NCBI GenBank assembly: GCA_965246995.1 | Contig: OZ252008.1 | Coordinates: 562,323 to 626,322 of the forward strand | DNA length: 64,000 nt | From: Vicinamibacterales bacterium | Lineage (GTDB): Bacteria > Acidobacteriota > Vicinamibacteria > Vicinamibacterales > UBA8438 | Reading direction: 5' to 3' | Shown here: positions 11,751 through 60,022 of the stretch, one piece after another | Layout of the letters: every line of letters starts with the position of its first letter | Position numbering within the stretch: the first letter of the stretch is position 1 | Made by a program: the position numbers and the translations under genes | Notes under the pieces: generated by a model | What the model was told of the DNA's origin: nothing | Database searches by the model: none | What the model saw: the letters and a program-made list of their open reading frames with translations, nothing else

Positions 11751-13499
11751 TCAGAGTGATTCCCGCAGATACCGCTCGCCGGTCCATTCCGGCGCCTGCT
11801 GATTGTGCTTTAGTCGCACGCGCTGCAGGGCCAGACCGGCGTAGTAATCATCGAGCCGGTCGCTGGCGTGTGCCACACCGGGCAGGCTCGCGGCGGCTTC
11901 CAGGGCGAAGCGGTCGGCAAGGAGCGGGTTCGGCGCGGTGCGGTACGCGCCATTCCACCAGTCGTAGATTCGCTCCTCCGCCTGGCGCAGGATCTGGTCT
12001 CCCGGCAGGAGATTGCGCTTCTCGTGCTGATTGACCTGCCGGTGTGCCGGCATCAGGTTCCAGAGGTCACCGCAGGGCCAGATCGCCCACGGGAAGCAGT
12101 GATCAATGTCGAGGGTTTGGCCTGAGAGCCGGCGACCGGTCCAGACACATTGCAGCGATCCCGTGGCCAGGAGGCGGTCGGCCTGTTCGCGGGCCACACG
12201 AACATCGCGTTCCGGCTCCATCCAGCTCATGGCGTGCGCAAGCGTCCGCTCGTCAAGCGAACGTCCCTGCCGGCCCGCGTACTCGTGCATGAGCAGCTTC
12301 CATTCCGCGACGATCGCTGGCTCGATCCAGACGCTCAGGCGCCGGATCGCCATCCATAGATGCATGGGAACGCGCAGCGTGCCGAAGCTCGCCAGGTAGG
12401 CCGGGGTCAAGCCTCCATCAACCGGCCGGGAGGGCTTGCTCGTCGTGCCCTCGTGGCGGACCGGAAGAATGGGATCGCTACTGTTCGGATAGGTCATGTA
12501 GCGAACCGGCATCCTCACGATCGTCGAGGTGACATCGGACAGGGCCCGGTGCAGCGCCGAAACGGTGTCGCGCGTGAACCGCGCACCCACCCGCAGATCG
12601 TGGTGAGAGACGTCCAGCCCTTCGACGCCATCCTGTTTGACGAACCCCAGTTTGTGGCCGGCGTGATCGTTGACCGGACTCTGCGGAATGTCCGCGTCGA
12701 GGAGCGGTTTGTAGAGTCGAATCCACGTCAGGGCGACGAGTCCCATCGGGATCGTGACATGGTCCTGATCCTGTTCCTCGGCGAGACCGAACGCGCCGTC
12801 GGCGATGCGGCAGAGCACGCGGAGCAGGCCCAGCTTGTAGGTTGAACTCTTCGAGTCGTTCAGGATGACGTTGCGGAGTAGCGGGAGCGCATCTGTCCCG
12901 TCGTCCGGGAGGCGGATCGCAACCTGGCTCCAGCGGACATCGCCGCGGCCCATCTGATCGTCGCCCGTCGCCTCCCGTTCCACGTACGCGCCGTGGTCCC
13001 GCGCGAGGCGGCGGAGTTCGGCAACCGTGACGGGGTGGAAGCCGCGGTTGTCTTCATCGGGTCCGTCGCGGAGGGTGATCGCGAGGAGACCGCCGGGCTT
13101 GAGCAGGGTGATCAGTTTGCGGAAGGCGCGAGGTCGATCCGTCGGGGCGAGGTGCATCCAGACCGCGCTCACGAGGATGACGTCGAACGAAAGGCCGGTC
13201 GAGAAGGTCTGCTTGAGCGCGGGAAGGCGGTCGTCGAGCCAGGTTATGGAACAGTCGGCGTGTCGGGCCCGGCCGAACTCCCGCATGCCGTCGGACGGCT
13301 CGACGGCGACGACGTCATAACCCATCCGGGAGAGTTGCGCGGCGTCGCGCCCGCTGCCGGCGCCCACGTCGAGGATGGCGGCGGGCGATGTCGGGAGCAG
13401 GTCGGCGAGCCAGCCGTGGACACGCTCGAAGGAGGTCGACTCGTAGCGCGCCGTGGCGGTCTCGGCGTGGGCGTTGTACCAGGCTATCGCGTCAGTCAT
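11751..13499 (-). CDS. Fusion protein with an N-terminal class I SAM-dependent methyltransferase, a central uncharacterised domain and a C-terminal HNH nuclease
   Basis: ILDVGAGSGRDAAQLSRMGYDVVAVEPS...VILVSAVWMHL...LLKPGGLL is the Rossmann SAM motif I and post-I region. The centre reads SKSSTYKLGLLRVLCRIA. The C-terminus reads LDIDHCFPWAIWPCGDLWNLMPAHRQVNQHEKRNLLP (HNH). 582 aa. Confidence 0.7.
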   Translation of the reverse strand: MTDAIAWYNAHAETATARYESTSFERVHGWLADLLPTSPAAILDVGAGSGRDAAQLSRMGYDVVAVEPSDGMREFGRARHADCSITWLDDRLPALKQTFSTGLSFDVILVSAVWMHLAPTDRPRAFRKLITLLKPGGLLAITLRDGPDEDNRGFHPVTVAELRRLARDHGAYVEREATGDDQMGRGDVRWSQVAIRLPDDGTDALPLLRNVILNDSKSSTYKLGLLRVLCRIADGAFGLAEEQDQDHVTIPMGLVALTWIRLYKPLLDADIPQSPVNDHAGHKLGFVKQDGVEGLDVSHHDLRVGARFTRDTVSALHRALSDVTSTIVRMPVRYMTYPNSSDPILPVRHEGTTSKPSRPVDGGLTPAYLASFGTLRVPMHLWMAIRRLSVWIEPAIVAEWKLLMHEYAGRQGRSLDERTLAHAMSWMEPERDVRVAREQADRLLATGSLQCVWTGRRLSGQTLDIDHCFPWAIWPCGDLWNLMPAHRQVNQHEKRNLLPGDQILRQAEERIYDWWNGAYRTAPNPLLADRFALEAAASLPGVAHASDRLDDYYAGLALQRVRLKHNQQAPEWTGERYLRESL

Positions 13500-13523
13500 C
13501 GGACGCGCCCTACGCGGCGCCGC

Positions 13524-14057
13524 TCACTCGAACACGTTGATCAGGGCATACGTGATCGCGCCGCCATCGGGGACGACGACCTGGTGCCACGAGCGGGCGG
13601 GCACATGGAGGATATCCCCCACGGTGACCTGGAACGCCTGCGCGCCTTCAAGTTGCGGCGTCTGACCTTCAGGCGGCTGTCCGTCGGTGAAGTTCACCCG
13701 CTCGCCGCCGACCCGAACTGTCCCGGAGCCCTTCAGGACGACGTAGATGTCCCACTTCGTCTCGTGGATCTCCGGCTGCGTGTAGCCCGCGCGGTGAATG
13801 ATCTGGACGGTGTGCGGCCGGTGGTCGGCGCTCGGCAGGGCCGTTTCGACCGCGAACGGCGTGCCCCAGATGCCCTCGCCGTTGGAGAGGGTTTCTTCGA
13901 GCGCGTCCTGAAAGTTCTCAACCGCCGCGGCGTCCCAGAGGATGTACTCCTCGGGACGAGGCTCGTTCGTGACATCCGCGAAAGGGTCGTCCTGCGCCGC
14001 CGCGAACGCAGGCAGTGCGAGAAACGCCAGCACCGTGAGGAAGCCTGCCGTGCGCAT
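13524..14057 (-). CDS. Secreted cupin-domain protein
   Basis: It has the signal peptide MRTAGFLTVLAFLALPAFAAAQ and cupin strands (HETKWDIYVVLKGSG...GDILHVPARSWHQV). Confidence 0.65.
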   Translation of the reverse strand: MRTAGFLTVLAFLALPAFAAAQDDPFADVTNEPRPEEYILWDAAAVENFQDALEETLSNGEGIWGTPFAVETALPSADHRPHTVQIIHRAGYTQPEIHETKWDIYVVLKGSGTVRVGGERVNFTDGQPPEGQTPQLEGAQAFQVTVGDILHVPARSWHQVVVPDGGAITYALINVFE

Positions 14058-14130
14058 GTGTCACCTCCATGGCGAGCGGGTTGTTGCGACGGTTATCGTA
14101 ACCGGGAAGCGGGCGTGCGGGGAGGTGGAC

Positions 14131-20215: not shown

Positions 20216-20767
20216 TCAGTTGCCGCCCAGGTAGTCGAGCGCGAACGTCTTCAGCGCGTCGCTCCGCAGGCCGATCGCCTCTGCCTCGACCGTCGCATCC
20301 TCGATCGAGTAGCCATCCTGCTTCACCCGCTTGATGAGCCACATGAAGCCCACCCGATTGGCGGATCCGCAGTGGATGTACACCGGCTGGTTCGCCGGCT
20401 CGGCCACCGTGTCCAGGAACTGATCGACGAGCTCGTCCGTCGGCTCCCGGAACGGGATATGGACGTAGTTCAGACCCACATCCTCGGCCGCTTCGCGCGA
20501 CGCCTCGACCCGTGCGTTCCGTTCACCCGCGGTCCGGAAGTTGATGACCGTGTTGAACCCGCGCTCGCGGATCTCCGGCATCGCTTCGGGACCGGTCGCC
20601 CCGGCGCACGCCACCGAGGCGTCTACCCGCGTGTAGTTCGGCACCCCTTCGGGGCCCTCTTCCTGCTGGAAGTTCTGCGCCTGCACGGCCACGACCGTTC
20701 CGGCCGCGACGAGCAGGATCGCAGCGAAAGCCGACACCAACGCCCCCGAGTTTCTTGACTGTTGCAT
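20216..20767 (-). CDS. Secreted or periplasmic Cys-based phosphatase-like protein (DSP-PTPase/DUF442-like)
   Basis: From the ATG at 20767 there is a signal-like segment SAFAAILLVAAGTVVAVQA. The CX5R P-loop is HCGSANRVG. The track ORF start at 20926 is probably too long. Confidence 0.65.
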   Translation of the reverse strand: MQQSRNSGALVSAFAAILLVAAGTVVAVQAQNFQQEEGPEGVPNYTRVDASVACAGATGPEAMPEIRERGFNTVINFRTAGERNARVEASREAAEDVGLNYVHIPFREPTDELVDQFLDTVAEPANQPVYIHCGSANRVGFMWLIKRVKQDGYSIEDATVEAEAIGLRSDALKTFALDYLGGN

Positions 20768-20807
20768 GACGGGTGATTGTACCATCGCTCCAGGGAGGGA
20801 GCCACAC

Positions 20808-21272
20808 ATGCCTGACGTCGTCCATACCAGCCGGATGCGGATCGAACGGGTGAAGGGCCCGGTCCGCCAAGCGTTTCTCGAGGGCTTCGACACGCCGATC
20901 CGCTTCGGCGTCCACGGGGGCATCAAGAAGTTCTACGGCGTCGAGCCTGAAGAGGAAGTCCCCGCGACGCTGGACTACATCGTCGGCGCAGTCGGCGGTT
21001 GACTGCTCGGGACACTTGCACGCGCACTGGAAGTGCGCAAAATTCCGGCGCCGCCCGACAAGATCAAGGCCCAGGTGGAGGGCGACATCGAGGCGATCGA
21101 CAATGTGCTGCGCATTACGCGCATCCGGGTCCGGTACGACCTGACGGTTCCGAGCGGGATGCGGGAGGCCGCCGAGCGCGCCGTCGCGAAGCACCCGAAG
21201 GGCTGCCCCGCTGCGAACAGCGTTGCCGGCTGCATAGACCTCGACATCACCGCCGACATCACCGAGGAGTAG
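20808..21272 (+). CDS. OsmC/YhfA-family peroxiredoxin-like protein with an in-frame TGA (21000-21002) at the conserved active-site Cys position; candidate selenoprotein
   Basis: Track ORFs 20766-21002 and 21033-21272 are in the same frame (both starts are divisible by 3) and are separated only by the TGA. The joined sequence is ...PATLDYIVGAVGG-[TGA]-LLGTLARALEVRKI...KHPKGCPAANSVAG. It parallels E. coli YhfA ...PSPMEMVLMAAGG-C-SAIDVVSIL...EKYCSVA (from memory). A GGGAGGGA site precedes the ATG at 20808. Confidence 0.6.
21022..21038 (+). promoter_or_regulatory. Candidate bacterial SECIS hairpin for the OsmC-like gene
   Basis: GCGCACU-GGA-AGUGCGC forms a perfect 7-bp stem. The G-rich apical loop starts 26 nt after the UGA. 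Confidence 0.4.
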
Positions 21273-21312: not shown

Positions 21313-22881
21313 GTGCCGCGCCTCATGCCGGACGTTCCAACCGCGGCGACCGTCCGGTGGCGCCCCTGGTGCGCGTCCACGTTCACGGATGCCCGCAGTG
21401 CCGGCGTCCCGGTGTTGCTGTCGCTCGGGCCGTCCTGGTGCCGCGCCACCGCCGCGATGGCGTCGGCCACGTACGGGGATCCCACCGTTGCCGCGCACGT
21501 TGCGGATCGGTTCATCCCGGTCCACGTCGATCCCGACGCACGTCCCGACATCGCCGACCGCTACAGCCTGGGCGGCTGGCCCACCACCGCCTTCCTGACA
21601 CCGGACGGCGACCTGCTGGGCGGCGAGACGTACATCCCGCCCGAACGGATGCGCGGCCTGTTGCCGCAGGTTGCCGACGCCTTCGCCGCACAGCGCGACG
21701 CGATTGCCGGGCGCGGCGGATCGGCAAGGGAAACACCCGTGCCGCCGTCCGCGCCCGACCGGACGATCGACGGTTGGCTCGCTGCCCACCTGCTCGATCA
21801 ATTCGACGCCACGCACGGCGGTTTCGGATCGGCGCCGAAGCGTGTGCATGCGGCGGCGCTCGAATATGCGGCGCGCCGCGCTGGGGCGGGGGACGACCGA
21901 TTTGGCGAGGTGGTCGATCGGACGCTGCGGGCGATCGGATGGGGTGGGCTGTACGACGACGTCAACGGCGGCGTGTTCCGCTATTGCGCGCGATCGGACT
22001 GGACGGAGCCGGCGACCGAGAAGCTGCTCGGTACGAATGCCGCGGCCTTGCGGCTCTTCCTGGAACGCGACGATGACCGTTGTCGGGAACGCGCCGTCCA
22101 TCTGATCAGCTACGTCCGGCGCACGCTGCTCGGGCGGCCGCATGGGCGCGCGGTGTTCTTTGCGAGTCAGCGGGCGGATCCGGCTTTCTATAGCTGCCGG
22201 TCGGGAGACCGGCGCGCCGACCGGCGCACAGACCACGACTACAGCCGGTCTGGAGACCGGCGAACGAATGAGCGCACCCACGAGACGCCGCCGGTGGTGG
22301 ATCGCGCGCTGTACGCGGACGGTACCGCGCTGATGGTCCGGGCCTGGACACGCGCCGCAACGGTGCTGGGTGACGAGAAGCTGCTGGCGGATGCGGTCGA
22401 CGCGCTGGAGCATGTGGTTGGCGGCACCTACGAGCGCGGCGGCGGCATCGCGCATCAGGTCGGCGAACGCGCGGACGCCGCCAGCCAGGTGCGAGGGTTG
22501 CTCGTCGATCAGGTGACGAACAGCGGAGCGCTCCTCGATCTGTATGCGGTGACGGACCGTGACGTCTATCTCGACATGGCGCAGGAACTGATGCACTTCT
22601 GCATCCGCCATCTCTGGAACGACGCGGCCGGAGGCTTCCGTGACCGGGTCCACGCGAACGACGACATCGGCCTCCTGCGGGAAGCGGTGTACCCCTTCGG
22701 CCTCAACTGCGACGCCGCTCGGGTCCTCGTCCGCCTCAGCCACCTGACGGGGCAGCCACAGTTTCGCGACCGTGCCCTCTCGACGCTCGCCGCGCAGTCC
22801 GCCGCCGCCCGCCCCCAGGGCGTCGACGCGGCGCCGTACGCCCTCGCGCTGCAGGATCTCGCCGCTACCCGCGATCCGTAG
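21313..22881 (+). CDS. Thioredoxin-fold DUF255/YyaL-like protein with a C-terminal (alpha/alpha)6-barrel-like domain
   Basis: WRPWCASTFTDARSAGVPVLLSLGPSWCRATAAMA...FIPVHVDPDARPDIADRY is DUF255-like, but the usual CHWCH motif is degenerate. It contains an in-frame GC-hairpin repeat insertion at 22193-22270. Confidence 0.65.
   Translation: MPRLMPDVPTAATVRWRPWCASTFTDARSAGVPVLLSLGPSWCRATAAMASATYGDPTVAAHVADRFIPVHVDPDARPDIADRYSLGGWPTTAFLTPDGDLLGGETYIPPERMRGLLPQVADAFAAQRDAIAGRGGSARETPVPPSAPDRTIDGWLAAHLLDQFDATHGGFGSAPKRVHAAALEYAARRAGAGDDRFGEVVDRTLRAIGWGGLYDDVNGGVFRYCARSDWTEPATEKLLGTNAAALRLFLERDDDRCRERAVHLISYVRRTLLGRPHGRAVFFASQRADPAFYSCRSGDRRADRRTDHDYSRSGDRRTNERTHETPPVVDRALYADGTALMVRAWTRAATVLGDEKLLADAVDALEHVVGGTYERGGGIAHQVGERADAASQVRGLLVDQVTNSGALLDLYAVTDRDVYLDMAQELMHFCIRHLWNDAAGGFRDRVHANDDIGLLREAVYPFGLNCDAARVLVRLSHLTGQPQFRDRALSTLAAQSAAARPQGVDAAPYALALQDLAATRDP
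22193..22270. repeat. GC-rich hairpin plus repeat element, copy 3 (in frame inside a CDS)
   Basis: CTGCCGGTCGGGAGACCGGCGCGCCGACCGGCGCACAGACC...GCCGGTCTGGAGACCGGCGAACG. It encodes the low-complexity peptide CRSGDRRADRRTDHDYSRSGDRRTNE. Confidence 0.7.
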
Positions 22882-28244: not shown

Positions 28245-29009
28245 CTATCGTTCCTGCGGCACGAAGACGTCCCGCGCGGGCATCTGCACCTGCGCGAGCG
28301 TGCTGGCGTTCATCACCGCGTCGGTCTCGATGATGCCGTTCTCCGCGAGCAGCCAGGCGGAGAGGGCGTAGACCTCGTCGTTGGCGAGGGTGCCGGGTGC
28401 GTTCGAGGGCATCGCTCTCCGGATGTAGTCGAAGAGCGTGGTGGCGTAGGGCCAGTAGTTCCCCACCGTGAACGGGACGTCGTCACCGTCGCCACGCCAT
28501 TCCTCGTAACGGGGGCCGAACGGCGGCGCGGTCCCCGGTTCGTAGCCGACGAGCGGTTCTGCGCTCATTCCTTCGCCGGCGCGGCCGTGGCAACTGGCGC
28601 AGTGGCGGAGGTAGATCGGCGCGCCGTCGGCGTGGGAGCCTTCGCCTTCCGGGAGGCCGGTGCCGTCCGGCATCACATCGATGTCCCACGCGGTGATCTC
28701 TTCGTGGGTGGCCTCGCGGCCGAAGCCGAAGCGGTCGGGATAGCCGGCCGGCGCTGTGGTGCCGACCGGCGCTGTGGTGCCGACCGGCACTGTGGTGCCG
28801 ACCGCCGCCGTCGTGTCGGCGGGCGCCGCATCGGTCATTGTTGCCGGCTCGGCGGCGGGCGGTGCGCTGTCCGCGCCCGTGCAACCGGCCGCGAGCACTG
28901 CGACAGCGAACAGCGTGGAGGCGAGACGCGTGAGCGCGAGATGCGTGAGGGATCCCGGCGTGGACGCCGGCGGACCATACGCCGGCGCACCGCGCGTTAT
29001 GCGTCCCAC
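28245..29009 (-). CDS. sorB: Cytochrome c subunit of sulfite dehydrogenase (lipoprotein-type signal)
   Basis: CASCHGRAGEG is the heme c site, and the lipobox-like segment is LFAVAVLAAGC. The proposed GTG start at 29009 overlaps the sorA stop. The longer track ORF (to 29504) overlaps sorA out of frame and is unlikely to be real. Confidence 0.65.
   Translation of the reverse strand: MGRITRGAPAYGPPASTPGSLTHLALTRLASTLFAVAVLAAGCTGADSAPPAAEPATMTDAAPADTTAAVGTTVPVGTTAPVGTTAPAGYPDRFGFGREATHEEITAWDIDVMPDGTGLPEGEGSHADGAPIYLRHCASCHGRAGEGMSAEPLVGYEPGTAPPFGPRYEEWRGDGDDVPFTVGNYWPYATTLFDYIRRAMPSNAPGTLANDEVYALSAWLLAENGIIETDAVMNASTLAQVQMPARDVFVPQER
28748..28801. repeat. Three tandem 18-bp repeats (CCGGCGCTGTGGTGCCGA) inside sorB
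   Basis: Units start at 28748, 28766 and 28784. On the minus strand they encode (V/A)GTT(V/A)P x3 in the linker after the lipobox. Confidence 0.8.
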
Positions 29010-30220
29010 GGTTCCTCCTCGCGGTAGAAGACGTGGCCGTCGGACTGAACACGCCAGGCGGTGATCGGGTTGAGGTGGTAGCGCCGGGCGCGGCGGCCTC
29101 TCTGGGCAAGGAGTTCCGCGCGCGTCGGCTGGACGTAGCCGGTATCGTCGGTCGCGCGGCTCATGATCTCGGTCTCGTTGCCATCCCACTGCCACAGGTG
29201 GCGGAACCGGGTGTGCGCCTGGCGGAGCACCGGCTCCTGCAGACGCGCCGGCTGCCAGGTGGCGCCGCCATCGGTGCTGGTGTCGACCTGGGCGATGGTT
29301 CCGCGGCCGGACCAGGCGATGCCCCGGAGCTCTATCCAGCCCGGCTCGATCACCTCGGGATACGCCGGCGACGTAATCACCGAGCGGGCGTCGAAGACAA
29401 AGCTGAAGCTCCGCGCTTTGCCGTCGGCCATCGGGTCGGTGTACTTCGACGTCTCCTCGCGGGTCATGAACGGCTGATCGGCCAGCTCGATCCGGCGCAG
29501 CCACTTGACGTTCGAGTTTCCCTCCCAGCCGGGGAGCAGCAGGCGCGCCGGGTAGCCCTGCGACGGGCGCAGCGATTCACCGTTCTGGGCGTAGGCGATC
29601 ATCGCGTCGTCCCACGCCTTCTCCATCGGGACGCTCCGCGTCATCACGGCGGCGTCCTGTCCTTCGGCCAGCAACCAGGAGGCGTCGGGACTCGCCCCCA
29701 CCTCGCGGAAGAGCGTAGCCAGGGTGACGCCGGTCCATTCGGTGGTCGCCGTCATGCCGCAGACATTCTGCGGCATGGTCTCGGGGCCAGCCGCCTGCGG
29801 GTAGTTGCCGGAGCACTCCAGGAAGCAGATGCGCGACGTCGCGGGAAAGCGTTTCAGTTCGTCGAGCGTGAGGATCATGGGCCGCTCGACCATGCCGTGG
29901 ATCAGGAGCTGGTAGTTGTCCGGGTCGATCGACGGCACGCCGGCGTGGTGACGCTCGAAGTGGACATCGGATGGCGTGATCATGCCGTGGAGGTCCTGGA
30001 GCGGCGTGCGGGAGGAACCGCGGGTGACGGAGCCGCGCGAGAGCGTCGCGTGCGGCGAGCGGTCGCCGAGCACGCTGGGAGGACCGCCGGGGGCCTTCGT
30101 TGTGTCGCCGGATTGGGCGAGGGCGTCGCGCGACGTGGGGAGTGTCGTGGCGGCGATGGCGGTGGCGGCGGTCGCGAGGAGACGGCGCCGGGTAATTGTC
30201 TTCGTGCTGCTGCGGGGCAT
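28997..30220 (-). CDS. sorA: Molybdopterin sulfite dehydrogenase/oxidase catalytic subunit with a Tat signal
   Basis: The twin-arginine signal is [25 protein letters not shown]...ICFLECSGN...[25 protein letters not shown] are SorA/SUOX-family motifs. Confidence 0.85.
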
Positions 30221-30285
30221 TGCGTCCTCCTGTCGTGCGACGCAGCCGGACGAAGTTCTCCGGCGGCGCCGCTTCCACTCCGCCG

Positions 30286-30516
30286 TTACGCGGTGGTCAA
30301 CGCCTTCAGGGCGTCAAGGACTTCCTGGGGTTCCGGGAAGCGTTCCTCCTTGTGCTTGGAGAAAATCATCTCGCCATCGGCGATGACGTCGAAGATGCCG
30401 TTGGTTCCCTCGATCAACTCGGCGTCGATATCGAACGCCTGCCTGATGTCGGCCGCCAGACTGGTGGCCCGGGGTCCGTACTTTCAACGGGTGCAGTAGG
30501 TAATCGAAATCTTCAT
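30286..30516 (-). CDS. SelW/Rdx-family (SelW-SelT-SelH-like) small redox protein with a CxxU motif; the in-frame TGA at 30484-30486 is read as selenocysteine
   Basis: Not in the ORF track. My translation is [10 protein letters not shown]-[TGA][65 protein letters not shown], 77 codons in total. A GGGAGGAG ribosome-binding site lies 10 nt upstream of the ATG at 30516. The Rdx family hallmarks are present (YCxxC/U near the N-terminus, G.FeV..dG..ifsk...gRFPe). Confidence 0.75.
30451..30469 (-). promoter_or_regulatory. Candidate bacterial SECIS hairpin for the SelW-like gene
   Basis: The mRNA reads GGCCACCA-GUC-UGGCGGCC, giving 7 base pairs and one A.C mismatch. The apical loop starts with GU, about 22 nt after the UGA. 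Confidence 0.45.
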
Positions 30517-30570: not shown

Positions 30571-32115
30571 CTAGCGCCGCCAGGCGAACAGGCGGGTGAG
30601 GAGCGCTTTCTGGCGCGCGCTGAAGCGGGATCGGCGGAGCTGGTTTGCGGTCCGGCGCCAGGCCTCGGCCTGTGTGGGGTAGGGGTGAATCGCGGCGCCG
30701 ATGGTCCCCAGTCCGGCCCTGGCCTGCATAGCGACGGTCACCTCGCTGATCAGGTTGCCGGCGTCGGCGGCGACTATTGTCGCGCCCAGGATCCGGTCGG
30801 TCCCCTGCTGGACGAGGACCCGCGCGAAACCGGCCTCCTCGCCATCGAGCAGCGCGCGGTCGACCTCCTCGAGCGGCTGCGTGAACGTCTCGACGGCAAG
30901 GCCTTTCTCGCGGGCATCCGCTTCGTACATCCCGACGTGCGCGATCTCGGGTTCGGTGTACGTGCACCAGGGGATGATCAGGCTGTCGGTCGTCCGGCGC
31001 CCGAGACCCAACGGGTGGGGGAAGAGGGCGTTCTGGATGACGATCTGCGCCATCGCATCGGCGGTATGCGTGAACTTGAAGGGGAAGCAGATATCGCCGG
31101 CAGCGTAGATGCGGGGGTTGCTCGTCCGGAGGTAGCTGTCGACGGTGACCCCCGCCCGGTCGAACGCCACGCCCGCCGCCTCCAGGCCGAGGTTCTCGAC
31201 GTTGGGAGCGCGCCCGACGCCGACGAGGATGGCATCCACGGTGACGTCGCTGGCGGCGCCGTCCAAGGTGTAGCGAATGTTCTTCTGGCCGCCGTTCGCC
31301 CCATCCGACTCGACGGACTCGACCTTGGCGTTGAATATGAAGCGGACCCCATCGTGTGCCATGCGGTCCTGCACGACCTCCGCCGCGTCCGGATCTTCGC
31401 GTGGGAGGATGTGATCGAACATTTCGATCAGCGTCACCTCGCTGCCGAAGCGGGCGAACGCCTGCGCCATCTCGCAACCGATCGGACCGGCCCCGATTAC
31501 GGCCAGGCGCGGCGGCAGCTCGGTCAGGGAGAAGACGGTTTCGTTCGTCAGGTAGCCGGCTTCGGCGAGGCCCGGGATCGGCGGCGCCGCGGCGCGCGCG
31601 CCGGTGCAGATCGCGCCGCGCGCAAACTGCAGGGTCGTATCGCCTACCTGCAGCGTGTCCGGTCCGGCGAAGCGTCCTTCGCCAAGGAAGATATCGACGC
31701 CGAGGCCGCGGTAGCGCTCGGCCGAATCGACATGGCTGATGGTTGCGCGGAGGCGGCGCATCCGTTCCATCGCGATACCGAAGTCGCGCTGGACGCCACC
31801 GGGAAAGGTGAGGCCGAAGCCCGCGCCGTCCTGGGCGCTCGCCCAGACGCGCGCCGCGCGGATCATTCCCTTCGAGGGGACGCAGCCGACGTTCAGGCAG
31901 TCGCCCCCCATCAGGTGGCGTTCGACCAGTGCGACTTTCGCGCCGAGGCCTGCCGCTACCGACGCGCTGATCAGGCCGGCGGTCCCGGCGCCAACCACCA
32001 CCAGGTTGTAGCGGCCGTCCGGCGTGGGGTTCTGCCAATCGGGCGGATGGACATTCGCCGTCAACTGGCGGTTGAAAAGGTCGTCAGGGGGCAGCAGGGA
32101 TTCGATTTCAGTCAC
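30571..32115 (-). CDS. FAD-dependent pyridine nucleotide-disulfide oxidoreductase (mercuric reductase/dihydrolipoamide dehydrogenase-like, no NmerA domain)
   Basis: [47 protein letters not shown] carries the redox-active CxxxxC. It also has an NAD site ([12 protein letters not shown]) and a dimerisation domain. 514 aa. Confidence 0.85.
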
Positions 32116-32178
32116 GGCGGATCACTATATGCTGTAGCGCTGCGGTGCCCCCTTCGAATCGGGGCGGAAGGAGAAACC

Positions 32179-36929: not shown

Positions 36930-38375
<1,446 letters not shown>

Positions 38376-39973
38376 GAGTTTGCGCCGCAGAAAAGGGATG
38401 CGACAATCGCAGACCATCCGACGACGAAAGGACCTGATGTCGACGACGTTCCGCCGCTACGCACCGGACCAGACCCTGTTGCTGCCAGCCGACATGCGGG
38501 AGTGGCTGCCGGAAGGCCACTTGGCGCATCACGTGAGCGACCTGGTGGACGGTTTGGATCTGACGGCGTTCTACGCGCCGTATGAGGGAGACGGACGGCG
38601 CAACGCGCCGTATGCGCCGCGGATGCTGGTGAAGGTGCTGATCTACGCGTATGCGACGGGGGTGTTTTCGTCGCGGGGGATCGCGAAGAAGCTGGAAGAG
38701 GACGTGGCGTTCCGGGTGCTGGCGGCGGGCAACTTTCCGCAACACCGGACGGTGTGCGAGTTCCGTCGGCGGCACCTTGGGGACTTCAAGAAACTGTTTG
38801 TGGAGGTGGTGCGTCTGGCGCAAGAGCTGGGGCTGGCGAGCTTCGGGAAGTTGTCGATAGACGGGACGAAGGTGCGGGCGAACGCGAGCAAGCGCAAGGC
38901 GATGAGCTACGGTCGGATGCAGGAGGAGGAGCGTCGCTTGGTCGGCGAGATTGACGCGCTGCTGGCGTCGGCGGACGACGCTGACGCGGCCGAGGATGCG
39001 CGGTTGGGGGCGGAGGTGCGCGGCGACGAGCTGCCGACGGAGTTGCGGCGGCGGGAGGATCGTCTGGCGGCGATCCGGGCGGCGAAGGCGCGTCTGGAGG
39101 CGGCGCAGCGGGCGGCGGACGACGCGCGCGGGCGGCAGCCGGGCGAGGGTCGGAACCCGCAGGGCGGTCGGCCGTACAAGCGGGGGTATGGCGAGCCGGA
39201 CGAGAAGGCGCAGAGCAACTTCACGGATCCGGACAGCGGGATCATGAAGACGAGCAACGAAGGGTTCCAGCAGTGCTACAACGCGCAGGTGGCGGTGGAT
39301 GGTGACCACCAGTTGGTGGTGGCGACCGACGTGACGGCGAACGCGAGTGACCAGGGCGGGTTGCCGGCGCTGCTCGACGCGGTGTCGGAGACGTTCGACG
39401 CGCAGCCGGAGACGGTGCTGGCCGACGCCGGGTATTGCAACGAGCGGGACTTGGTGGACCTGGAGACGCGGGGCGTCAACGGGTATGTGGCGCCGGGACG
39501 AGAGGGTAAGACGGCGGCGACCAGCGACCCCAAGAAGCATCCGGCGACGAGTCGCATGTCGGAGAAACTGGCGACGCGGGCGGGCCGGGCGGCGTATGCG
39601 GAACGCAAGTGGCTGTCGGAGGCCCCGCACGGCTGGATCAAGCACGTGCTGGGATTCCGGCGCTTCAGCCTGCGGGGACTCGCCACGGCGGGCGGCGAGT
39701 GGGACTTGGTGTGCCTGGCGTTGAACGTCAAACGCCTTCAGCCCCTGATGGGGATGTGAAACGCGAGGTATGAAGCCGGCAACGGCCGCGCAGCGGTGCG
39801 AATCGTGGCCGCTGGCGAGCCCCGGGGCGCGTCGGAGCCGATTTTGCCGACCGTTTCGCCGGCCGCCGAGAATCGACCTCGCCCGCTGACCGGCGAAGTC
39901 GCCCCGACGCGGTGCGTCAGGTTGTGGGCCGACGGCCAACTATCGTCCGGCGAATCTCCTGCGGCGCAGACTC
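38376..39973 (+). mobile_element. IS1182-family insertion sequence, copy 1 (1598 bp)
   Basis: The inverted termini are GAGTTTGCGCCGCAG and CTGCGGCGCAGACTC. It is flanked by CTAG (38372-38375) and CTAG (39974-39977) and contains a single transposase ORF. Confidence 0.85.
38437..39759 (+). CDS. IS1182-family DDE transposase
   Basis: MSTTFRRYAPDQTLLLPADMREWLPEGHLAHHV...RNAPYAPRMLVKVLIYAYATGVFSSRGIAKKLEEDVAFRVLAAGNFPQHRTVCEFRRRH...LSIDGTKVRANAS is the typical IS1182 N-terminal region and DDE region. Confidence 0.88.
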   Translation: MSTTFRRYAPDQTLLLPADMREWLPEGHLAHHVSDLVDGLDLTAFYAPYEGDGRRNAPYAPRMLVKVLIYAYATGVFSSRGIAKKLEEDVAFRVLAAGNFPQHRTVCEFRRRHLGDFKKLFVEVVRLAQELGLASFGKLSIDGTKVRANASKRKAMSYGRMQEEERRLVGEIDALLASADDADAAEDARLGAEVRGDELPTELRRREDRLAAIRAAKARLEAAQRAADDARGRQPGEGRNPQGGRPYKRGYGEPDEKAQSNFTDPDSGIMKTSNEGFQQCYNAQVAVDGDHQLVVATDVTANASDQGGLPALLDAVSETFDAQPETVLADAGYCNERDLVDLETRGVNGYVAPGREGKTAATSDPKKHPATSRMSEKLATRAGRAAYAERKWLSEAPHGWIKHVLGFRRFSLRGLATAGGEWDLVCLALNVKRLQPLMGM

Positions 39974-39977
39974 CTAG

Positions 39978-41681
39978 CCCGGATAATTCAGGAAGGGTCC
40001 GATTACGGTAGAAAAACAAGAGCCTCCGCGTGGTATAAATGGCTTATTCACAGACATTTACCCACCACGGAGGCCCTTGCGTGACGATCAATACGATACC
40101 ACAGACTGTCCTCTTTCCGGATCTCTTCGACAAGCCCCTCGTCGCGACGTTCGACCGCCGGCACGCGAGTTCCGATGGCGGCGCCGTCCTGCTCAAGGCG
40201 GCGGAGCGCGTGTATGGGTTGGTGGCGGGTTTCGCCCGGTGTCTGGTGGACCGGCGGGAGCCCGGGAAGATCCGGCACACGCTGGCGGAGTTGCTCGGCC
40301 AGCGGATCTTCGGCATTGCCTGCGGCCATCCCGATGGCAACGACGCCGACCACCTCGCCGACGACCCGATCCACAAGCTGTTGCTCGGGCGGGACCCGGT
40401 GGCGGGGGAGGCGTTGGCCTCGCAGCCGACGATCTCGCGGTTCGAGAACGGCGTTGGCCGGTCCGCCCTCTACGAGCTGGCGCGCGAGCTGGCGATGCGG
40501 GTCATCGAGCGGCATCAGCGCCGGCTGGACGGGCGGGCGCGGCGCATCACGATCGACCTGGATCCGACCGACGACGCGACGCACGGCGCCCAGCAGCTCA
40601 CCTTCTTCAACGGGCACTACGATCGCTGGTGCTACCTGCCGTTGCTGGCGTTTCTGACCTTCGACAAGGAACGCGAACAGTATCTGTGCGCGGCGGTGCT
40701 GCGGCCCGGCAATGTGCCGGCCCCCCGCGGGACCGTGGGCGTGTTGTGCCGGCTGCTGCCCCTGCTGCGGCAGGCCTTTCCCCAGGCGCGGTTTCTCGTC
40801 CGGCTCGACGGGGGCTTTGCGACACCGGAGATCTTCGACTTCCTGGATGCCGAGCCGCGGCTCGACTACGTGGTGGCCATGGCCAAGAACGCCGTGTTGC
40901 AGCGCCACGCCGAGCCCGCCCTGCTCGTGGCGCAGGCCCAGAGCGCGGCCAGCGGCCAGACCGCGCAGGTCTACGCCGACACCCGCTATCGGGCCCGCAC
41001 GTGGGACCGCGACCGCCGCGTCGTGATCAAGGCCGAGGTCGTCCGGCTCGGCGACCGCGCCCCGCGCGACAACCCGCGCTTCGTCGTGACCAATCTGCGC
41101 CAGACGCCGCGCTTCCTCTATGAACGGATCTACTGCGCCCGCGGCGACATCGAGAACCGCATCAAGGAACTGCTCGATGGCCTGCAGATCGACCGCACGA
41201 GCTGCTGTCGCTTCTGGGCCAATCAACTGCGCGTGCTGCTCACCGCCGCCGCCTACGTGCTGATGCAAGAACTCCGGCTGCGCGCGGCGCGCACCGCCTG
41301 TGCCCGCGCCCAGGTGACGTGGCTGCGCGACCGGCTCCTCAAATTGGGGGCGCACGTCGTCGGCTCGGTCCGCCGCGTGGTCCTGCACCTGCCGACCGCC
41401 ACGCCGGACCTCCACGCCTGGCGGCACATCGCGCTGGCACTCGGCGCCCGCCCCGGATAGACCCCAGACAGCGCCCGTCAGCCGCGCATACACGCATCCC
41501 AACGGCGAACCGAGCCCGCCCATGGCGAAGCCGTCCCTGGACGGCCCCATACCCAGGCCTTCCGCACCGGCAATCAGTGTCTATCCCGCCGGCGCTCGAC
41601 GAAAACGACGCCCGGCGGGCCGTGTGCGCGACGATCACACCGTCCGAGGGGCCATCTTGGAGCCTTCAGGAATAGTCCGGG
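39978..41681 (+). mobile_element. IS1380-family insertion sequence, copy 1 (1704 bp)
   Basis: The termini are imperfectly inverted (CCCGGATAATTCAGGAAGG and CCTTCAGGAATAGTCCGGG). It is flanked by CTAG (39974-39977) and CTAG (41682-41685). Confidence 0.8.
40039..41460 (+). CDS. IS1380-family DDE transposase
   Basis: ATFDRRHASSDGGAVLLKAAERVYGLVAGFARCL...IFGIACGHPDGNDADHLADDP...LASQPTISRFENGV...ITIDLDPTDD is the IS1380 pattern. Confidence 0.88.
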   Translation: MAYSQTFTHHGGPCVTINTIPQTVLFPDLFDKPLVATFDRRHASSDGGAVLLKAAERVYGLVAGFARCLVDRREPGKIRHTLAELLGQRIFGIACGHPDGNDADHLADDPIHKLLLGRDPVAGEALASQPTISRFENGVGRSALYELARELAMRVIERHQRRLDGRARRITIDLDPTDDATHGAQQLTFFNGHYDRWCYLPLLAFLTFDKEREQYLCAAVLRPGNVPAPRGTVGVLCRLLPLLRQAFPQARFLVRLDGGFATPEIFDFLDAEPRLDYVVAMAKNAVLQRHAEPALLVAQAQSAASGQTAQVYADTRYRARTWDRDRRVVIKAEVVRLGDRAPRDNPRFVVTNLRQTPRFLYERIYCARGDIENRIKELLDGLQIDRTSCCRFWANQLRVLLTAAAYVLMQELRLRAARTACARAQVTWLRDRLLKLGAHVVGSVRRVVLHLPTATPDLHAWRHIALALGARPG

Positions 41682-51226: not shown

Positions 51227-51369
51227 TACGGCGCGCGTAGGTTTGTTGACGCCGACCGCGAGGATGTAGTGTCGGCTACTGGTCCCGATCCGCCTTTTCG
51301 AATCGGAGGCGGGCCGGCGCGGTCTCGTCGGACCGACCCACAGTTGGGTCCAGCGAGAGGAGCATTGCC

Positions 51370-53574
51370 ATGAAAGGGCTGATCGCCCTTGTCGTCGTCG
51401 TCTTCACCGGCGCGTCGGCGTCTGCTGCTCCCCTGACCTGCGACCTGGGCCAATACACGGCGAAGGACGGGCTCGCGGTAACCGTCGAATCGGATGTGCT
51501 GAGCGTCGCGTGGGCCGGCGACGACGGCAGCGACCTGCGGATGCGTTTTGTCATCCAGGACGGGCAGCCGATCGTGCGGGAGCTGGCGATTCGCCGGCAG
51601 GGCGGCGCCTGGGCCACGCTCGGTCAGGATCTCACACCCGAATTCCATGTCACGAGCGGCGTCCGCCGGCTGTCGTACCAGCAGTCACGGCCGCTCGAGG
51701 GGACGGGCGTCGAAATCGACCAGGAGGTGATCGACAGAGAGAAGTGGTACGTCTTCTGGGACGCGCCGCTTCTCGTTCCCGGCGTGACCGAGGGCAGAAA
51801 TCCCCGGAACTGGGGTCTCCCGCGCTCGCCGGAGGAAATCCGTCACATGGATGCGTCGTTCGCCACCTCGTCGTGCAGCGTGAAGACGGATGGCGCGCGC
51901 CTGGAGGTGACCTTTCCGGGCCTGTCGATGGGCATCTTCGCCGGCAATCTGCGCTTCACGGTCTATCGCGGCACGAACCTCGTGCGGATGGAGGCCATCG
52001 CGATGACCGAGGAGGACTCGGTCGCCTACATCTACGAAGGGGGCTTGCGCGGCTTTTCGACCGACACGCTGTCGCGTGTGGTGTGGAACGACCTCGGCGG
52101 CAACGCGCAACAGTACGGGTTCGGCGGCGTGACGAACGACACGAGGGTCGCGGTGAGGGCCGCCAACCGCGTGCTGGTCGCAGAAGGCCAGGGCGGGTCG
52201 GTCGCGGCGTTTCCGCCGCCCCACGCCTTCTTCTGGACACGGGAAGTGGACATCAATCTCGGTTACGTGTGGTACCGGCACGACGAGGGTGACCAGTTCG
52301 GCATCGGCGTGCGGCAGCACGATCGTGAAGAAGACCCGCGCTACGTCGAGAACTTCGCGTTGTACAACGCGCCGCCGGGCACCATGCAGCGGATGGCGAT
52401 GTACTTCTACGCCGGGACCGGCCCCGCGGAGGCCACACGCCAGGATGTGCTCGCCTTCACCTACGGTGACAAGTTCAAGGCGGTCCCGGGCTACCAGACG
52501 TTCGTTAACCACTTCCACCTCCGGTTCACCGAGCGGCAGCGCGCGCTCGGGTCGCTGGACTACAAGTTCCCGGACCTGGAGGCGATGAAGGCGGTGGGCC
52601 TCAACATCGTCGGGTTGAGCGATTTCCACGGCGACATGAATCCGAACGACCCTGGCCCGCTGCGGTTCGATGACTGGCGCGACTACGGCCTGGCGTCGCA
52701 GAAGGCCTCCGACGCCGACTTCCTCGTGACGCCCTGGGAAGAGCCGAGCGCGTACTTCGGCGGACACTTCAACACGATGTTCCCCAAGGTCGTGTACTGG
52801 TCGAAGGTGCGCGAGCCGGGGCAGCCGTACACCGAGCACGACCCCACCTACGGGACGGTGTACCACGTCGGCAACACGGATGACATGCAGCAGCTCCTGG
52901 ACGACGAGGACGGCTACTGGTTCCATGCGCACCCGCGCACCAAAGGCACGACGGGGTACCCGGATCACCTCTTCGACACGTCGTATCTGCGCAACGACCG
53001 CTACCTGGGCGTCGCCTTCAAGCCGGGCATGGGCCAGGATCTGTCGGAAAAGCGGATGTGCGAGTATCGCTGCTTCGACGCGGTGGACACGATGAACAAC
53101 CTCCTGGCCGGCTCCGGTCTGCGGCCGAAGTACATCATCGCGGACGTCGATACGTATCAGAAGGGCCCGAACGACGACATCTATGCGAACTTCCCGGTCA
53201 ACTACGTCAAGCTGGAGCGGTTGCCGAGGGCGGACGAGGACTGGAGCCCGATCCTGACCGCGCTCCGGAACGGCGACTTCTTCGTGACGACGGGCGAGGT
53301 TCTGATTACGAACCATGCTGTCGAAGGCACTGGGAACACGCGGACGTTCGGGGCCGACGTGCAGTGGACGTACCCGCTTGAATTCGTCGAAGTGGTCTGG
53401 GGCGATGGCACGAACATCGACCGGCGCATTGTCTCCGCCACCGATCTGCCTCCGTTCGGATCCCGGCGGTTCGAGATCCCGTTCGACGCCACCGGGAAGG
53501 CGTGGGTCCGCTTTGCCGTTTGGGACTCGGCCGGTAACGGCGCCTTCGTGCAGCCGATGTGGGTGAAGCCATGA
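51370..53574 (+). CDS. Secreted protein of unknown function, paralogue A (734 aa), with His-rich metal-hydrolase-like motifs in the C-terminal half
   Basis: It has a signal peptide. The motifs FVNHFHLRF, GLSDFHGD, GGHFNTMFP and WFHAHPRTKGTTGYPD suggest a metal-dependent (PHP-like?) fold. No confident family assignment is possible. Confidence 0.6.
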   Translation: MKGLIALVVVVFTGASASAAPLTCDLGQYTAKDGLAVTVESDVLSVAWAGDDGSDLRMRFVIQDGQPIVRELAIRRQGGAWATLGQDLTPEFHVTSGVRRLSYQQSRPLEGTGVEIDQEVIDREKWYVFWDAPLLVPGVTEGRNPRNWGLPRSPEEIRHMDASFATSSCSVKTDGARLEVTFPGLSMGIFAGNLRFTVYRGTNLVRMEAIAMTEEDSVAYIYEGGLRGFSTDTLSRVVWNDLGGNAQQYGFGGVTNDTRVAVRAANRVLVAEGQGGSVAAFPPPHAFFWTREVDINLGYVWYRHDEGDQFGIGVRQHDREEDPRYVENFALYNAPPGTMQRMAMYFYAGTGPAEATRQDVLAFTYGDKFKAVPGYQTFVNHFHLRFTERQRALGSLDYKFPDLEAMKAVGLNIVGLSDFHGDMNPNDPGPLRFDDWRDYGLASQKASDADFLVTPWEEPSAYFGGHFNTMFPKVVYWSKVREPGQPYTEHDPTYGTVYHVGNTDDMQQLLDDEDGYWFHAHPRTKGTTGYPDHLFDTSYLRNDRYLGVAFKPGMGQDLSEKRMCEYRCFDAVDTMNNLLAGSGLRPKYIIADVDTYQKGPNDDIYANFPVNYVKLERLPRADEDWSPILTALRNGDFFVTTGEVLITNHAVEGTGNTRTFGADVQWTYPLEFVEVVWGDGTNIDRRIVSATDLPPFGSRRFEIPFDATGKAWVRFAVWDSAGNGAFVQPMWVKP

Positions 53575-55838
53575 TGAAGACCACGATCACATCTGTCGCG
53601 TCCGTACTCTCCGTGACCGCGCTGGCCGCAGCTACCGTTGGGTTCGGCGCGTCGCCGGCGTATGCCGAGGCGCTGAACTGCAGTCTGACCGGATACCAGG
53701 CATCGCCAGGGCTGACCGCCGCCGTGGCCGATGACACACTGGCCCTCACCTGGGACGGGGACCCTGGCCAGGAAGTACGGCTCAGGCTGATGATCTCGGG
53801 CGGCGCGCCCACGATTCTGGACCTCGCGGTGCGGCGCAAGGGCGCGCGGTGGGCCACGCTGGTCAGCAACGCGAGGCCTGAATTCCGGGTAGCCTCCGGT
53901 CTGCGCCGGATCACCAATCAGCAACTGCGGCCGCTCCAGGCGCTCGGCGTCGACATCACGGCGGAGATCATCGACGAGGAAAAGTGGGACGCGTTCTGGG
54001 ACGCGCCCTTGAACCTCCCGGGCGGCGACGCGGCCCACGGAAACTCGACACCCCCGCTCGAGGGCCTCGATCATCAGCCGGGGCTGCCGCGCCTGCCGGA
54101 AGAGGTCACGCGCGCCACCGCGACGTATCAGGCGCAGGGATGCGAAGTGACGACCAACGGGGCGCGCCTTGAAGTGACCTTCCCCGGCGTCGAGTTGGGC
54201 GTCTTTGCCGGCCGGCTGCAATACACGGTGTTCCGGGGCACGAACCTGATCCGGCAGGAGGTCATTGCCAAGACAGACGAACCGTCGGTGGCCTACAAGT
54301 ACGAGGCCGGTCTCAGCGGGTTGGCGATTCAGCCGACGTCCCGGATGGTATGGCGCGACATCTCGAATCTCTGGCAGGACTATCAGTTCGGCGGCGCTCT
54401 GAACGAGAGCCCGGTGTCTCTGAAATCGAGCAACCGGCTGGTCGTTGCCGAAGTTCCAGGGGGGGCTATTGCGGCGTTCCCGCCGCCGCACAATTTCTTT
54501 TGGGCCCGCGAACTCGAGTTCAACCTCGGGTACACCTGGTATCGCAAGGATAGCGAGACGTCGTTCTCGTTCGGCGTCCGACAGCCCGACGGCGAGGAAG
54601 AGCCGACAGGCGTGGGCCGCGGAGCCGAGGATATCCGGCAGAACTCCGCGCTCCGCAGCGCGAGGCCGGGCACCTGGCAGCGGATGCCGGTCTTTTTCTA
54701 TGTCAGCGCCGGATCCGGCGAGGCCACGCTGGAGTCGGCGCTGGCCTTCACCCGCCAGGACACCTTCAAGCCGCTCGAAGGCCACAAGGTCATGGCGACC
54801 CACTTTCATACCCGATTCGTGCGGCGGCTGCAGGCATCCGGCATGGACACGAGGATTCGCGAGCTCGATGCGATGAAGGCGATCGGGATCAACATCCTGG
54901 GGCTGGGCGAGAGTTCGCGCGGCCCCGATCGCCTGAAGAACCAGGCTGATTACTTCGAAGGCGCCCGGCGACATTCCGACAAGGACTTCCTGATCATGCC
55001 GAGCGAGGAGGATTTTTCCGGCAATCTCGGCGGGCACAACGACGTCCTGCCGTCGAAGCCGGTCTTCTGGACGCAAGGCCGCGCCGATGGCCAAGCGTTT
55101 GTCGAGGAGCATCCCACGTACGGCACGGTCTATCACGTCGGCAACCCGGCGGACATGATGGAGATGGCCAAGCGGGAGAACATGCTCATCTACATGGCCC
55201 ATCCGCGCTCGAAGGGCTCGACCGGATTTCCGGACGCGATCAAGGACACGGCCCACTTTCGGCACGAGCACTATCGGGGGATCGGCTGGCGCTGGGGGAT
55301 GGGCATCGACGGGTCGGAGCGGCGCCTGTGCGAGCTTCGCTGCCTGGACCTGTTGGACGACATGAACAACTGGGTCGCCGACCAACCCACCCCGGCCAAG
55401 TATCTGCATGCCATTTCAGAGACCTATCAGAAGGGACCGGGGGACGACATCTACGCGAACAATCCGGTCAGCTACGTGAAGATCGATCAGCTCCCCGGGT
55501 CCGACGACTGGAGCCCGATCATCGACGCCATGAAGCGCGGCGACTACTTCGTGACCTCGGGAGAGGTGTTGATCCCCTCCTACGGCATCGAGGGAACTGG
55601 CGCCGACAGCACGATCATCGCCGAAGTGGAGTGGACCTTTCCGCTGGAATTCGTCGAGGTCGTCTGGGGAGACGGGCAGACGACTGACCGGCAGATCGTC
55701 TCGGCGACCGACCTGTTGCCGTTCGGCCGCCAACGGTTCGAAATCCCGTTCGACGCCACCGGGAAGAAATGGGTGCGTTTCGCCGCGTGGGACTCGGCAG
55801 GTAACGGCGCACTCGTGCAGCCGATCAAGCTCCAGTGA
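53571..55838 (+). CDS. Secreted protein of unknown function, paralogue B (755 aa)
   Basis: Its ATGA overlaps the stop of paralogue A. It is colinear with A (for example FPGVELGVFAGRLQYTVFRGTNLIRQE against FPGLSMGIFAGNLRFTVYRGTNLVRME, and the same C-terminal ...WVRFAAWDSAGNGALVQP). Confidence 0.6.
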   Translation: MMKTTITSVASVLSVTALAAATVGFGASPAYAEALNCSLTGYQASPGLTAAVADDTLALTWDGDPGQEVRLRLMISGGAPTILDLAVRRKGARWATLVSNARPEFRVASGLRRITNQQLRPLQALGVDITAEIIDEEKWDAFWDAPLNLPGGDAAHGNSTPPLEGLDHQPGLPRLPEEVTRATATYQAQGCEVTTNGARLEVTFPGVELGVFAGRLQYTVFRGTNLIRQEVIAKTDEPSVAYKYEAGLSGLAIQPTSRMVWRDISNLWQDYQFGGALNESPVSLKSSNRLVVAEVPGGAIAAFPPPHNFFWARELEFNLGYTWYRKDSETSFSFGVRQPDGEEEPTGVGRGAEDIRQNSALRSARPGTWQRMPVFFYVSAGSGEATLESALAFTRQDTFKPLEGHKVMATHFHTRFVRRLQASGMDTRIRELDAMKAIGINILGLGESSRGPDRLKNQADYFEGARRHSDKDFLIMPSEEDFSGNLGGHNDVLPSKPVFWTQGRADGQAFVEEHPTYGTVYHVGNPADMMEMAKRENMLIYMAHPRSKGSTGFPDAIKDTAHFRHEHYRGIGWRWGMGIDGSERRLCELRCLDLLDDMNNWVADQPTPAKYLHAISETYQKGPGDDIYANNPVSYVKIDQLPGSDDWSPIIDAMKRGDYFVTSGEVLIPSYGIEGTGADSTIIAEVEWTFPLEFVEVVWGDGQTTDRQIVSATDLLPFGRQRFEIPFDATGKKWVRFAAWDSAGNGALVQPIKLQ

Positions 55839-60018: not shown

Positions 60019-60022
60019 CTAG

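Follow-up and report, generated by a model that had tools for sequence, protein, structure and literature searches.

A stretch of 64,000 nucleotides (nt) from a Vicinamibacterales bacterium (contig OZ252008.1, positions 562,323 to 626,322, forward strand), referred to here as the window, very probably contains a single gene at 20808-21272 for a selenocysteine (Sec)-containing protein of the OsmC fold, in which the UGA codon at 21000-21002 encodes Sec at the position of the catalytic cysteine. A preliminary description, made by reading the sequence, had proposed this locus as an OsmC-like gene split by its TGA. The proposal is carried by the alignment of the TGA codon with the peroxidatic residue of the family, by its conservation in frame throughout two clades of relatives, and by a conserved hairpin with suppressed synonymous variation downstream of the UGA.

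The gene lies on the forward strand and is complete, with an ATG at 20808, 154 codons and a TAG stop at 21270-21272. It is preceded by a Shine-Dalgarno-like sequence read from the DNA (GGGAGGGAG, 20793-20801), 6 nt before the start codon. The TGA at 21000-21002 is codon 65, in the context ...DYIVGAVGG-[TGA]-LLGTLARAL..., and is the sole interruption of the frame. The open reading frame (ORF) listing splits the gene into 20766-21002 and 21033-21272; these were described from the outset as a same-frame pair divided by the TGA alone, and both are indeed in frame with the ATG at 20808. The joined ORFs had also been read as an OsmC-fold protein, and the 154-amino-acid (aa) read-through product matches the Pfam OsmC family PF02566 over residues 54-147 (E = 2e-11, 44.6 bits, cutoff 27.5). 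The N-terminal 50 residues (HTSRxRIERVKGPxR...GVHGGIKKFYG) are conserved and lie outside the Pfam match.

The position of codon 65 within the family was established in several ways. When a family profile is aligned to solved structures, the TGA column coincides with the AHAGCFS cysteine of T. thermophilus OsmC (1ukk). The Sargasso Sea OsmC-like selenoprotein AACY01145085 has the sequence ...AGIGFuLLTQL...KQGCFAENL..., where u is Sec (PMC1088965 supplement), and a BLASTP alignment with it sets position 65 on u40, Sec on Sec, and Cys133 on the second cysteine (31% identity over 116 residues, E = 4e-9). Full-length homologues with cysteine at the TGA column were also found, six in a first protein search (P0003-6, P0015 and P0061) and about 19 more among the 50%-identity cluster representatives of an exhaustive search. 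The equation of the TGA column with the conserved catalytic cysteine, which the preliminary description asked to be checked by alignment and by comparing Cys and Sec versions among orthologues, thus stands. The second family cysteine, said to be retained in KGCPAANS, is present as Cys133 (codon 21204-21206) and is predicted to be the resolving residue. In the profile alignment its column matches the resolving cysteine, in EGCPVS (1ukk) and AGCPVS (E. coli OsmC); it also matches QGCFAEN of the Sargasso protein, and it is invariant in an alignment of diverse homologues.

Orthologues were collected from two sources. A scan of one genome per species returned 162 relatives, the best 80 of which were analysed at the DNA level; these loci are 74-93% identical and are labelled Vicinamibacterales, Vicinamibacteria or Acidobacteria. 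All 80 carry the TGA at the same column, in frame and with co-linear halves. A second clade, with the motif U-M-M-G-T-L-A-T, was used to seed a metagenome scan that returned at least 576 relatives; in the best 80 of these the TGA is again in frame without exception, making 160 of 160 fetched loci for both clades together. The TGA was also found in five further loci, L081-L084 and L089. Public records of the second clade are partly labelled Thermoleophilia, and C-terminal halves labelled Ilumatobacter are also among the matches. Besides Vicinamibacterales genomes, the gene occurs in soil, sediment and other environmental metagenomes. Within Vicinamibacterales the ratio of nonsynonymous to synonymous substitution rates (dN/dS) is 0.13 before the TGA and 0.24 after it, and both halves of the gene are under purifying selection. 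Halves standing as independent genes, which the preliminary description had raised as a counter-possibility, were not seen among the 160 loci.

Three cysteine or selenocysteine positions are maintained in these Sec-containing clades. In addition to codons 65 and 133, the codon at 21231-21233 encodes Cys142 (AGCIDL), within a motif R/A-G-C-I-D; this cysteine is invariant in the 80 orthologues and likewise in the second clade. Several Cys-type homologues have A, G or S at this position, and Cys142 could be a second resolving residue peculiar to the Sec forms.

Public databases hold this gene in fragments. The annotation of every public copy seen consists of one truncated ORF or two, named either 'OsmC family protein' (85 aa) or 'hypothetical protein'. 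More than 100 database proteins are half-length: the N-terminal halves end at ...AVGG or ...AVGA just before the TGA column, and the C-terminal entries begin at the first usable L or M past it. In four full-length entries the residue at the column is W. The DNA of one of these was retrieved (P0007, locus L089) and carries TGA, so its W is an artefact of a gene call in which TGA was read as Trp (code 4). One unusual entry is a database protein of 2087 aa (P0139), in which the C-terminal half of the OsmC-like protein is matched in eight separate stretches, suggesting either a giant protein in which OsmC-like modules are repeated, or an oddity of assembly or gene calling.

Downstream of the UGA is a hairpin resembling a selenocysteine insertion sequence (SECIS), located at 21022-21038 on the forward strand, with a perfect 7-bp stem (GCGCACU/AGUGCGC) and a GGA loop that begins 26 nt past the UGA, exactly as first described. 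Across 67 distinct Vicinamibacterales sequences its stem pairing is intact in 469 of 469 pair cells. In L089, a more distant relative that also carries the TGA, the same codons read GCGUGCU-GGA-AGCACGC, with two compensatory pairs (C-G to U-A and A-U to G-C) brought about by swapped Ala and Val codons. Synonymous variation is suppressed in a zone covering the UGA context and the hairpin (about codons 64-78, 20997-21041, forward strand): mean codon entropy at conserved four- and six-fold degenerate codons is 0.40 bits there versus 1.33 bits elsewhere in the gene (Mann-Whitney p = 1.9e-6). All 80 sequences share GGT64, CTG66, CTG74 and GTG76, and the rare codons GGT64 and GCA73 are fixed. The check for a SECIS-like element that the preliminary description had called for therefore yields a hairpin that is conserved across orthologues and accompanied by frozen synonymous sites.

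The hairpin of the second clade is a different one, CUGGCCA-(CGGYGC)-UGGCCRG, with a 7-bp stem and an N6 loop, centred two codons earlier. Of 51 distinct sequences, 49 have it completely paired, and it is accompanied by a separate trough of synonymous variation (p = 1.5e-4). The distance from the UGA to the start of the loop is 26 nt in the first clade and 19 nt in the second, both inside the consensus spacing of 16-37 nt for bacterial SECIS elements. The loops of both hairpins contain G, and a small G-containing loop downstream of the UGA is how bacterial SECIS elements have been described (PMC1088965). The window hairpin resembles the E. coli fdhF type and the Zhang and Gladyshev consensus in that a stem-loop with a small, G-containing apical loop lies in the coding region directly 3' of the UGA. 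It differs from them in that its stem is a short, perfectly paired helix of 7 bp closed by a GGA loop of 3 nt (alternatively, 6 bp and a UGGAA loop), without a bulged U or an evident lower stem, and on its sequence it is a candidate SelB site.

Several observations weigh against this interpretation. Of the window's 1413 TGA triplets, 2.2% are followed at the same distance by a perfect hairpin with 7 bp or more, and the 74-nt segment after the UGA has a folding energy no better than that of shuffled sequences (z = 0.20), although minimum free energy alone is uninformative at a GC content of 67%. The hairpin in a single sequence is thus weak evidence, and it is the comparative evidence that carries the case. 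Within each clade the hairpin changes are wobble-only, with no double changes; those in the Vicinamibacterales stem are limited to G-C to G-U, A-U to G-U and U-A to U-G, so the pattern within this group is one of conservation, not of covariation, and true covariation is known from one sequence alone, that of L089. The whole window gave no Rfam match at gathering thresholds, and a permissive scan of 20950-21120 gave a chance match alone (E = 7). Among four Cys loci, L088 (1123-1614, encoding the Cys-type P0061 with TGC at the column) has a stronger hairpin, of 11 bp and -14.9 kcal/mol, 7 nt past its Cys codon. The presence or absence of a hairpin therefore does not discriminate between Sec and Cys forms; that of L088 may be due to chance, or may be a relic or precursor of a SECIS.

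Other adverse points concern the organism and the protein. No selA, selB, selD or tRNA-Sec was found within the 64-kb window, and no SelA, SelB or SelD was recognised on reading the translations of 35 selected window ORFs with high GC content at the third codon position (GC3). Four NCBIfam models of the OsmC/Ohr type matched the window protein, each with a score under its curated cutoff: NF041052, 'OsmC-related (seleno)protein' (27.1 bits, cutoff 95), TIGR03562 for OsmC peroxiredoxin (19.3 bits, cutoff 85.8), TIGR03561 for Ohr (13.2 bits, cutoff 88.9) and TIGR03563 for the SACOL1771 peroxiredoxin (15.9 bits, cutoff 166). Furthermore, we infer the peroxidase chemistry from family membership alone.

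The protein is predicted to have the OsmC alpha/beta fold. An AlphaFold model of the Cys orthologue P0003, which is 66% identical to the window protein, has a predicted local distance difference test score (pLDDT) of 94.6, and its top Foldseek matches in the PDB are all OsmC, Ohr or YhfA-like proteins aligned over the whole length, with template modelling (TM) scores of 0.67-0.74. The best of these are Ta0195 (2onf) and the OsmC-like protein of M. pneumoniae (1lql). The TGA column lies on the long central helix of the model (residues 54-76).

By analogy with OsmC and Ohr, the most likely function is that of a hydroperoxide reductase, since both catalytic positions are in place. In the mechanism we propose, the hairpin at 21022-21038 would act as a bacterial SECIS, bringing SelB-GTP and Sec-tRNA(Sec) to a ribosome paused at UGA65, where Sec would be inserted in place of termination. 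The product would most likely be a homodimeric hydroperoxide reductase. Its Sec65 selenolate would attack a hydroperoxide (ROOH) to give a selenenic acid, which Cys133 of the GCP motif would resolve to a selenenylsulfide, and a dithiol partner would then re-reduce the enzyme. Candidates for this partner are a lipoyl protein, as for Ohr and OsmC, or a thioredoxin-like protein such as the DUF255 protein encoded next to the gene.

A selenoprotein that is not a peroxidase is the strongest of the alternatives, though we consider it unlikely. In this case the Sec/Cys pair would serve another redox role or a sulfur/selenium-transfer role, as has been proposed for some YhfA/COG1765 relatives. The scores under the curated OsmC, Ohr and NF041052 cutoffs are consistent with such a role, as are the uncharacterised OsmC-like proteins 2onf, 1lql and 1ml8 among the best structural matches, the conserved N-terminal 50 residues beyond the Pfam match, the additional conserved Cys142, and the conserved neighbouring genes for the thioredoxin-like DUF255 protein and a DSP-phosphatase-like protein. 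However, both OsmC/Ohr catalytic positions are present and aligned, and the characterised members of the OsmC fold with the same cysteine pair are hydroperoxide reductases, which favours a peroxidase.

Comparison with known structural families places the protein at some distance from each. It shares with OsmC peroxiredoxin (E. coli 1qwi/1nye, T. thermophilus 1ukk, TIGR03562) the fold and the columns of the peroxidatic and resolving cysteines, but has Sec in place of the peroxidatic cysteine and falls far below the TIGR03562 cutoff; the E. coli and T. thermophilus OsmC chains are 10-16% identical to the P0003 model in structural alignment. Ohr (TIGR03561; 1n2f, 6eb4) likewise shares the fold and provides the template for the two-cysteine mechanism, but the window protein is well below the cutoff of that model too, and there is no known Sec form of Ohr among the matches. 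The nearest structural neighbours are YhfA/COG1765-type and other uncharacterised OsmC-like proteins, with TM scores of 0.74 (2onf), 0.73 (1lql) and 0.67 (1ml8, a structural genomics entry that we take to be E. coli YhfA). These differ in being only 16-17% identical and in not being selenoproteins.

OsmC-like selenoproteins as such have been established since 2005. Three sequences assigned to COG1765, with the motif UxxT, were reported from the Sargasso Sea (PMC1088965) and five in Global Ocean Sampling (GOS) data (PMC2398784), so the statement in the preliminary description on such proteins from marine metagenome surveys was correct; they have also been entered in reviews of 2022 and 2026. 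The curated family for them is NF041052 (OsmC_like_Se), which covers the Sargasso and GOS proteins, for example AACY01145085. The window protein resembles this family in belonging to the OsmC fold family, with Sec on the central helix at the peroxidatic column, and resembles the Sargasso protein further in having a second cysteine in a GC motif and a hairpin just past the UGA. The Sargasso protein scores 157.4 bits with NF041052, whereas the window protein, at 27.1 bits, is below the cutoff of 95 and the second clade gives no match, and the lineage is therefore not within the curated family. It differs from the Sargasso protein in motif as well, with U-L-L-G-T in place of UxxT, so that the Thr is at +4 and not at +3, and in length (154 aa versus 137 aa, about 17 residues longer). 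The conserved N-terminal HTSR...GPxR...GVHGGIKKFYG and the extra Cys142 are further differences, and the Sargasso protein comes from marine surface plankton, in contrast to the Vicinamibacterales, soil, sediment and other environmental samples here. Judged by its sequences, the lineage is separate from NF041052, largely terrestrial and mostly Sec-containing, with the same Sec site as the known OsmC-like selenoprotein.

On these grounds we suggest, tentatively, that the gene represents a large OsmC lineage outside present curation that is mostly Sec-containing, near-universal in recovered Vicinamibacterales genomes (162 matches), abundant in environmental metagenomes through its sister clade (at least 576 relatives), and characterised by clade-specific SECIS hairpins and a third conserved cysteine. 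No paper describing the lineage was found, and automated selenoproteome surveys may have grouped it under 'OsmC-like'. If the lineage is indeed undescribed, it would rank among the commonest selenoproteins that lack annotation in terrestrial bacteria, and it may have a chemistry different from that of classic OsmC and Ohr. It would add a terrestrial, mostly-Sec branch to the OsmC-like selenoproteins previously known from marine surveys, with no new mechanism revealed. A curated model would mend hundreds of gene calls in Acidobacteriota and Actinomycetota and would also mark the carrier organisms as users of Sec. The finding also suggests that selenium supply may influence the defence against peroxides among abundant soil Acidobacteria.

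A second gene in the window also appears to use UGA for Sec. The preliminary description had pointed to a SelW-like gene about 9 kb away, and this gene is real: it lies 9.5 kb from the OsmC-like gene at 30286-30516 on the reverse strand, encodes a CxxU motif with its TGA at 30484-30486, and matches Pfam Rdx with E = 2e-19. A stem-loop of -14.2 kcal/mol begins 5 nt past its UGA (CGGACCCCGGGCCACCAGUCUGGCGGCCG). The gene is flanked by those for a sulfite-oxidase-like molybdoenzyme (28997-30223) and a pyridine nucleotide-disulfide oxidoreductase (30571-32121). The presence of this gene lends indirect support to Sec decoding in the organism. Acidobacteria have been recorded among the phyla with selenoproteins (PMC1794560); a literature search combining selenocysteine with Vicinamibacter or Luteitalea turned up nothing of relevance.

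We infer that Sec itself is inserted at UGA65, and consider it very improbable that the codon is read by a different system inserting Cys, Ser or Trp, such as a suppressor or allo-tRNA, or a tRNA-Cys of the SelC* type that SelB would deliver. Allo-tRNAs of Acidobacteria have been discussed as possible nonsense suppressors, and the selC* tRNA-Cys mimics tRNA-Sec (Mukai et al., PMC5389517); that neither tRNA-Sec nor any sel gene is visible within the window would fit such a reading. However, selC* has been reported from anaerobic Firmicutes, Thermodesulfobacteria, Nitrospirae and Proteobacteria, and not from Acidobacteria (PMC5389517). TGA is also the normal terminator of many ordinary genes in the window, which argues against any general reassignment of the codon, and the conserved local hairpin with its frozen synonymous sites indicates site-specific recoding of the SelB type. 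Moreover, the TGA and a hairpin recur in the second clade, with its records labelled Thermoleophilia and its Ilumatobacter-labelled C-terminal halves, and the CxxU gene of the same window likewise uses TGA.

The least credible alternative, to which we give almost no weight, is that the locus is a pseudogene or a pair of separate small genes with the TGA as a true stop: the halves are called separately in databases (for example as an 85-aa 'OsmC family protein [Vicinamibacterales bacterium]') and in the second clade an ATG immediately follows the TGA (TGAATG), superficially resembling stop-start coupling, but a pseudogene would decay, whereas the identical TGA is kept in one frame in all 160 loci from many species with purifying selection on both sides. 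The conserved TGA, the co-linear halves and the dN/dS values rule out both a pseudogene and a sequencing artefact. Two separate genes are untenable as well, since a break here would split the central helix at the catalytic residue itself, which would be lost. In addition, neither a start codon nor a ribosome-binding site is conserved for the C-terminal half in the first clade, with gene callers choosing differing L, V or M, and the codons just past the TGA show conservation at the protein level (LLGTLARALEVR) and can be aligned with the Cys-form homologues.

The surroundings of the Sec-containing OsmC-like gene are partly conserved. Immediately downstream, a gene on the forward strand encodes the DUF255 thioredoxin-like protein (21313-22881), which is a neighbour of the orthologue in 75 of 80 loci and a candidate redox partner of the selenoprotein. 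Upstream and divergently transcribed is the gene for a secreted DSP/BLH-phosphatase-like protein (20216-20758, reverse strand), a conserved neighbour in 44 of the 80 loci. A gene resembling those for aromatic amino-acid decarboxylases lies near the orthologue in 77 of the 80.

Two further candidates from the window were rejected. A second possible read-through site, the TGA at 13524-13526 on the reverse strand (ORFs 11751-14060), separates two unrelated neighbouring genes that are both of high GC3 and in the same frame. The first encodes a secreted cupin-like protein, and the second a methyltransferase/HNH-like protein that has its own ATG eight codons past the stop. The only ARAGORN call, an 88-nt 'tRNA-Gly(ccc)' at 54450-54537 on the forward strand, has no Rfam tRNA match up to E 10 and lies inside a 766-codon ORF (53538-55838); the call is almost certainly spurious, and this is not a tRNA-Sec.

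Repeated sequences were also seen elsewhere in the window. A transposase-like gene pair occurs twice, at 38365-41460 and 58605-61531, about 20 kb apart, with ORFs of about 450 and 475 aa that are similar by eye, suggesting repeated insertion sequence (IS) elements. Finally, the adjacent genes of about 770 aa at 51250-53574 and 53538-55838 on the forward strand share long stretches in their translations and are clearly paralogous, representing a tandem duplication of a secreted protein.

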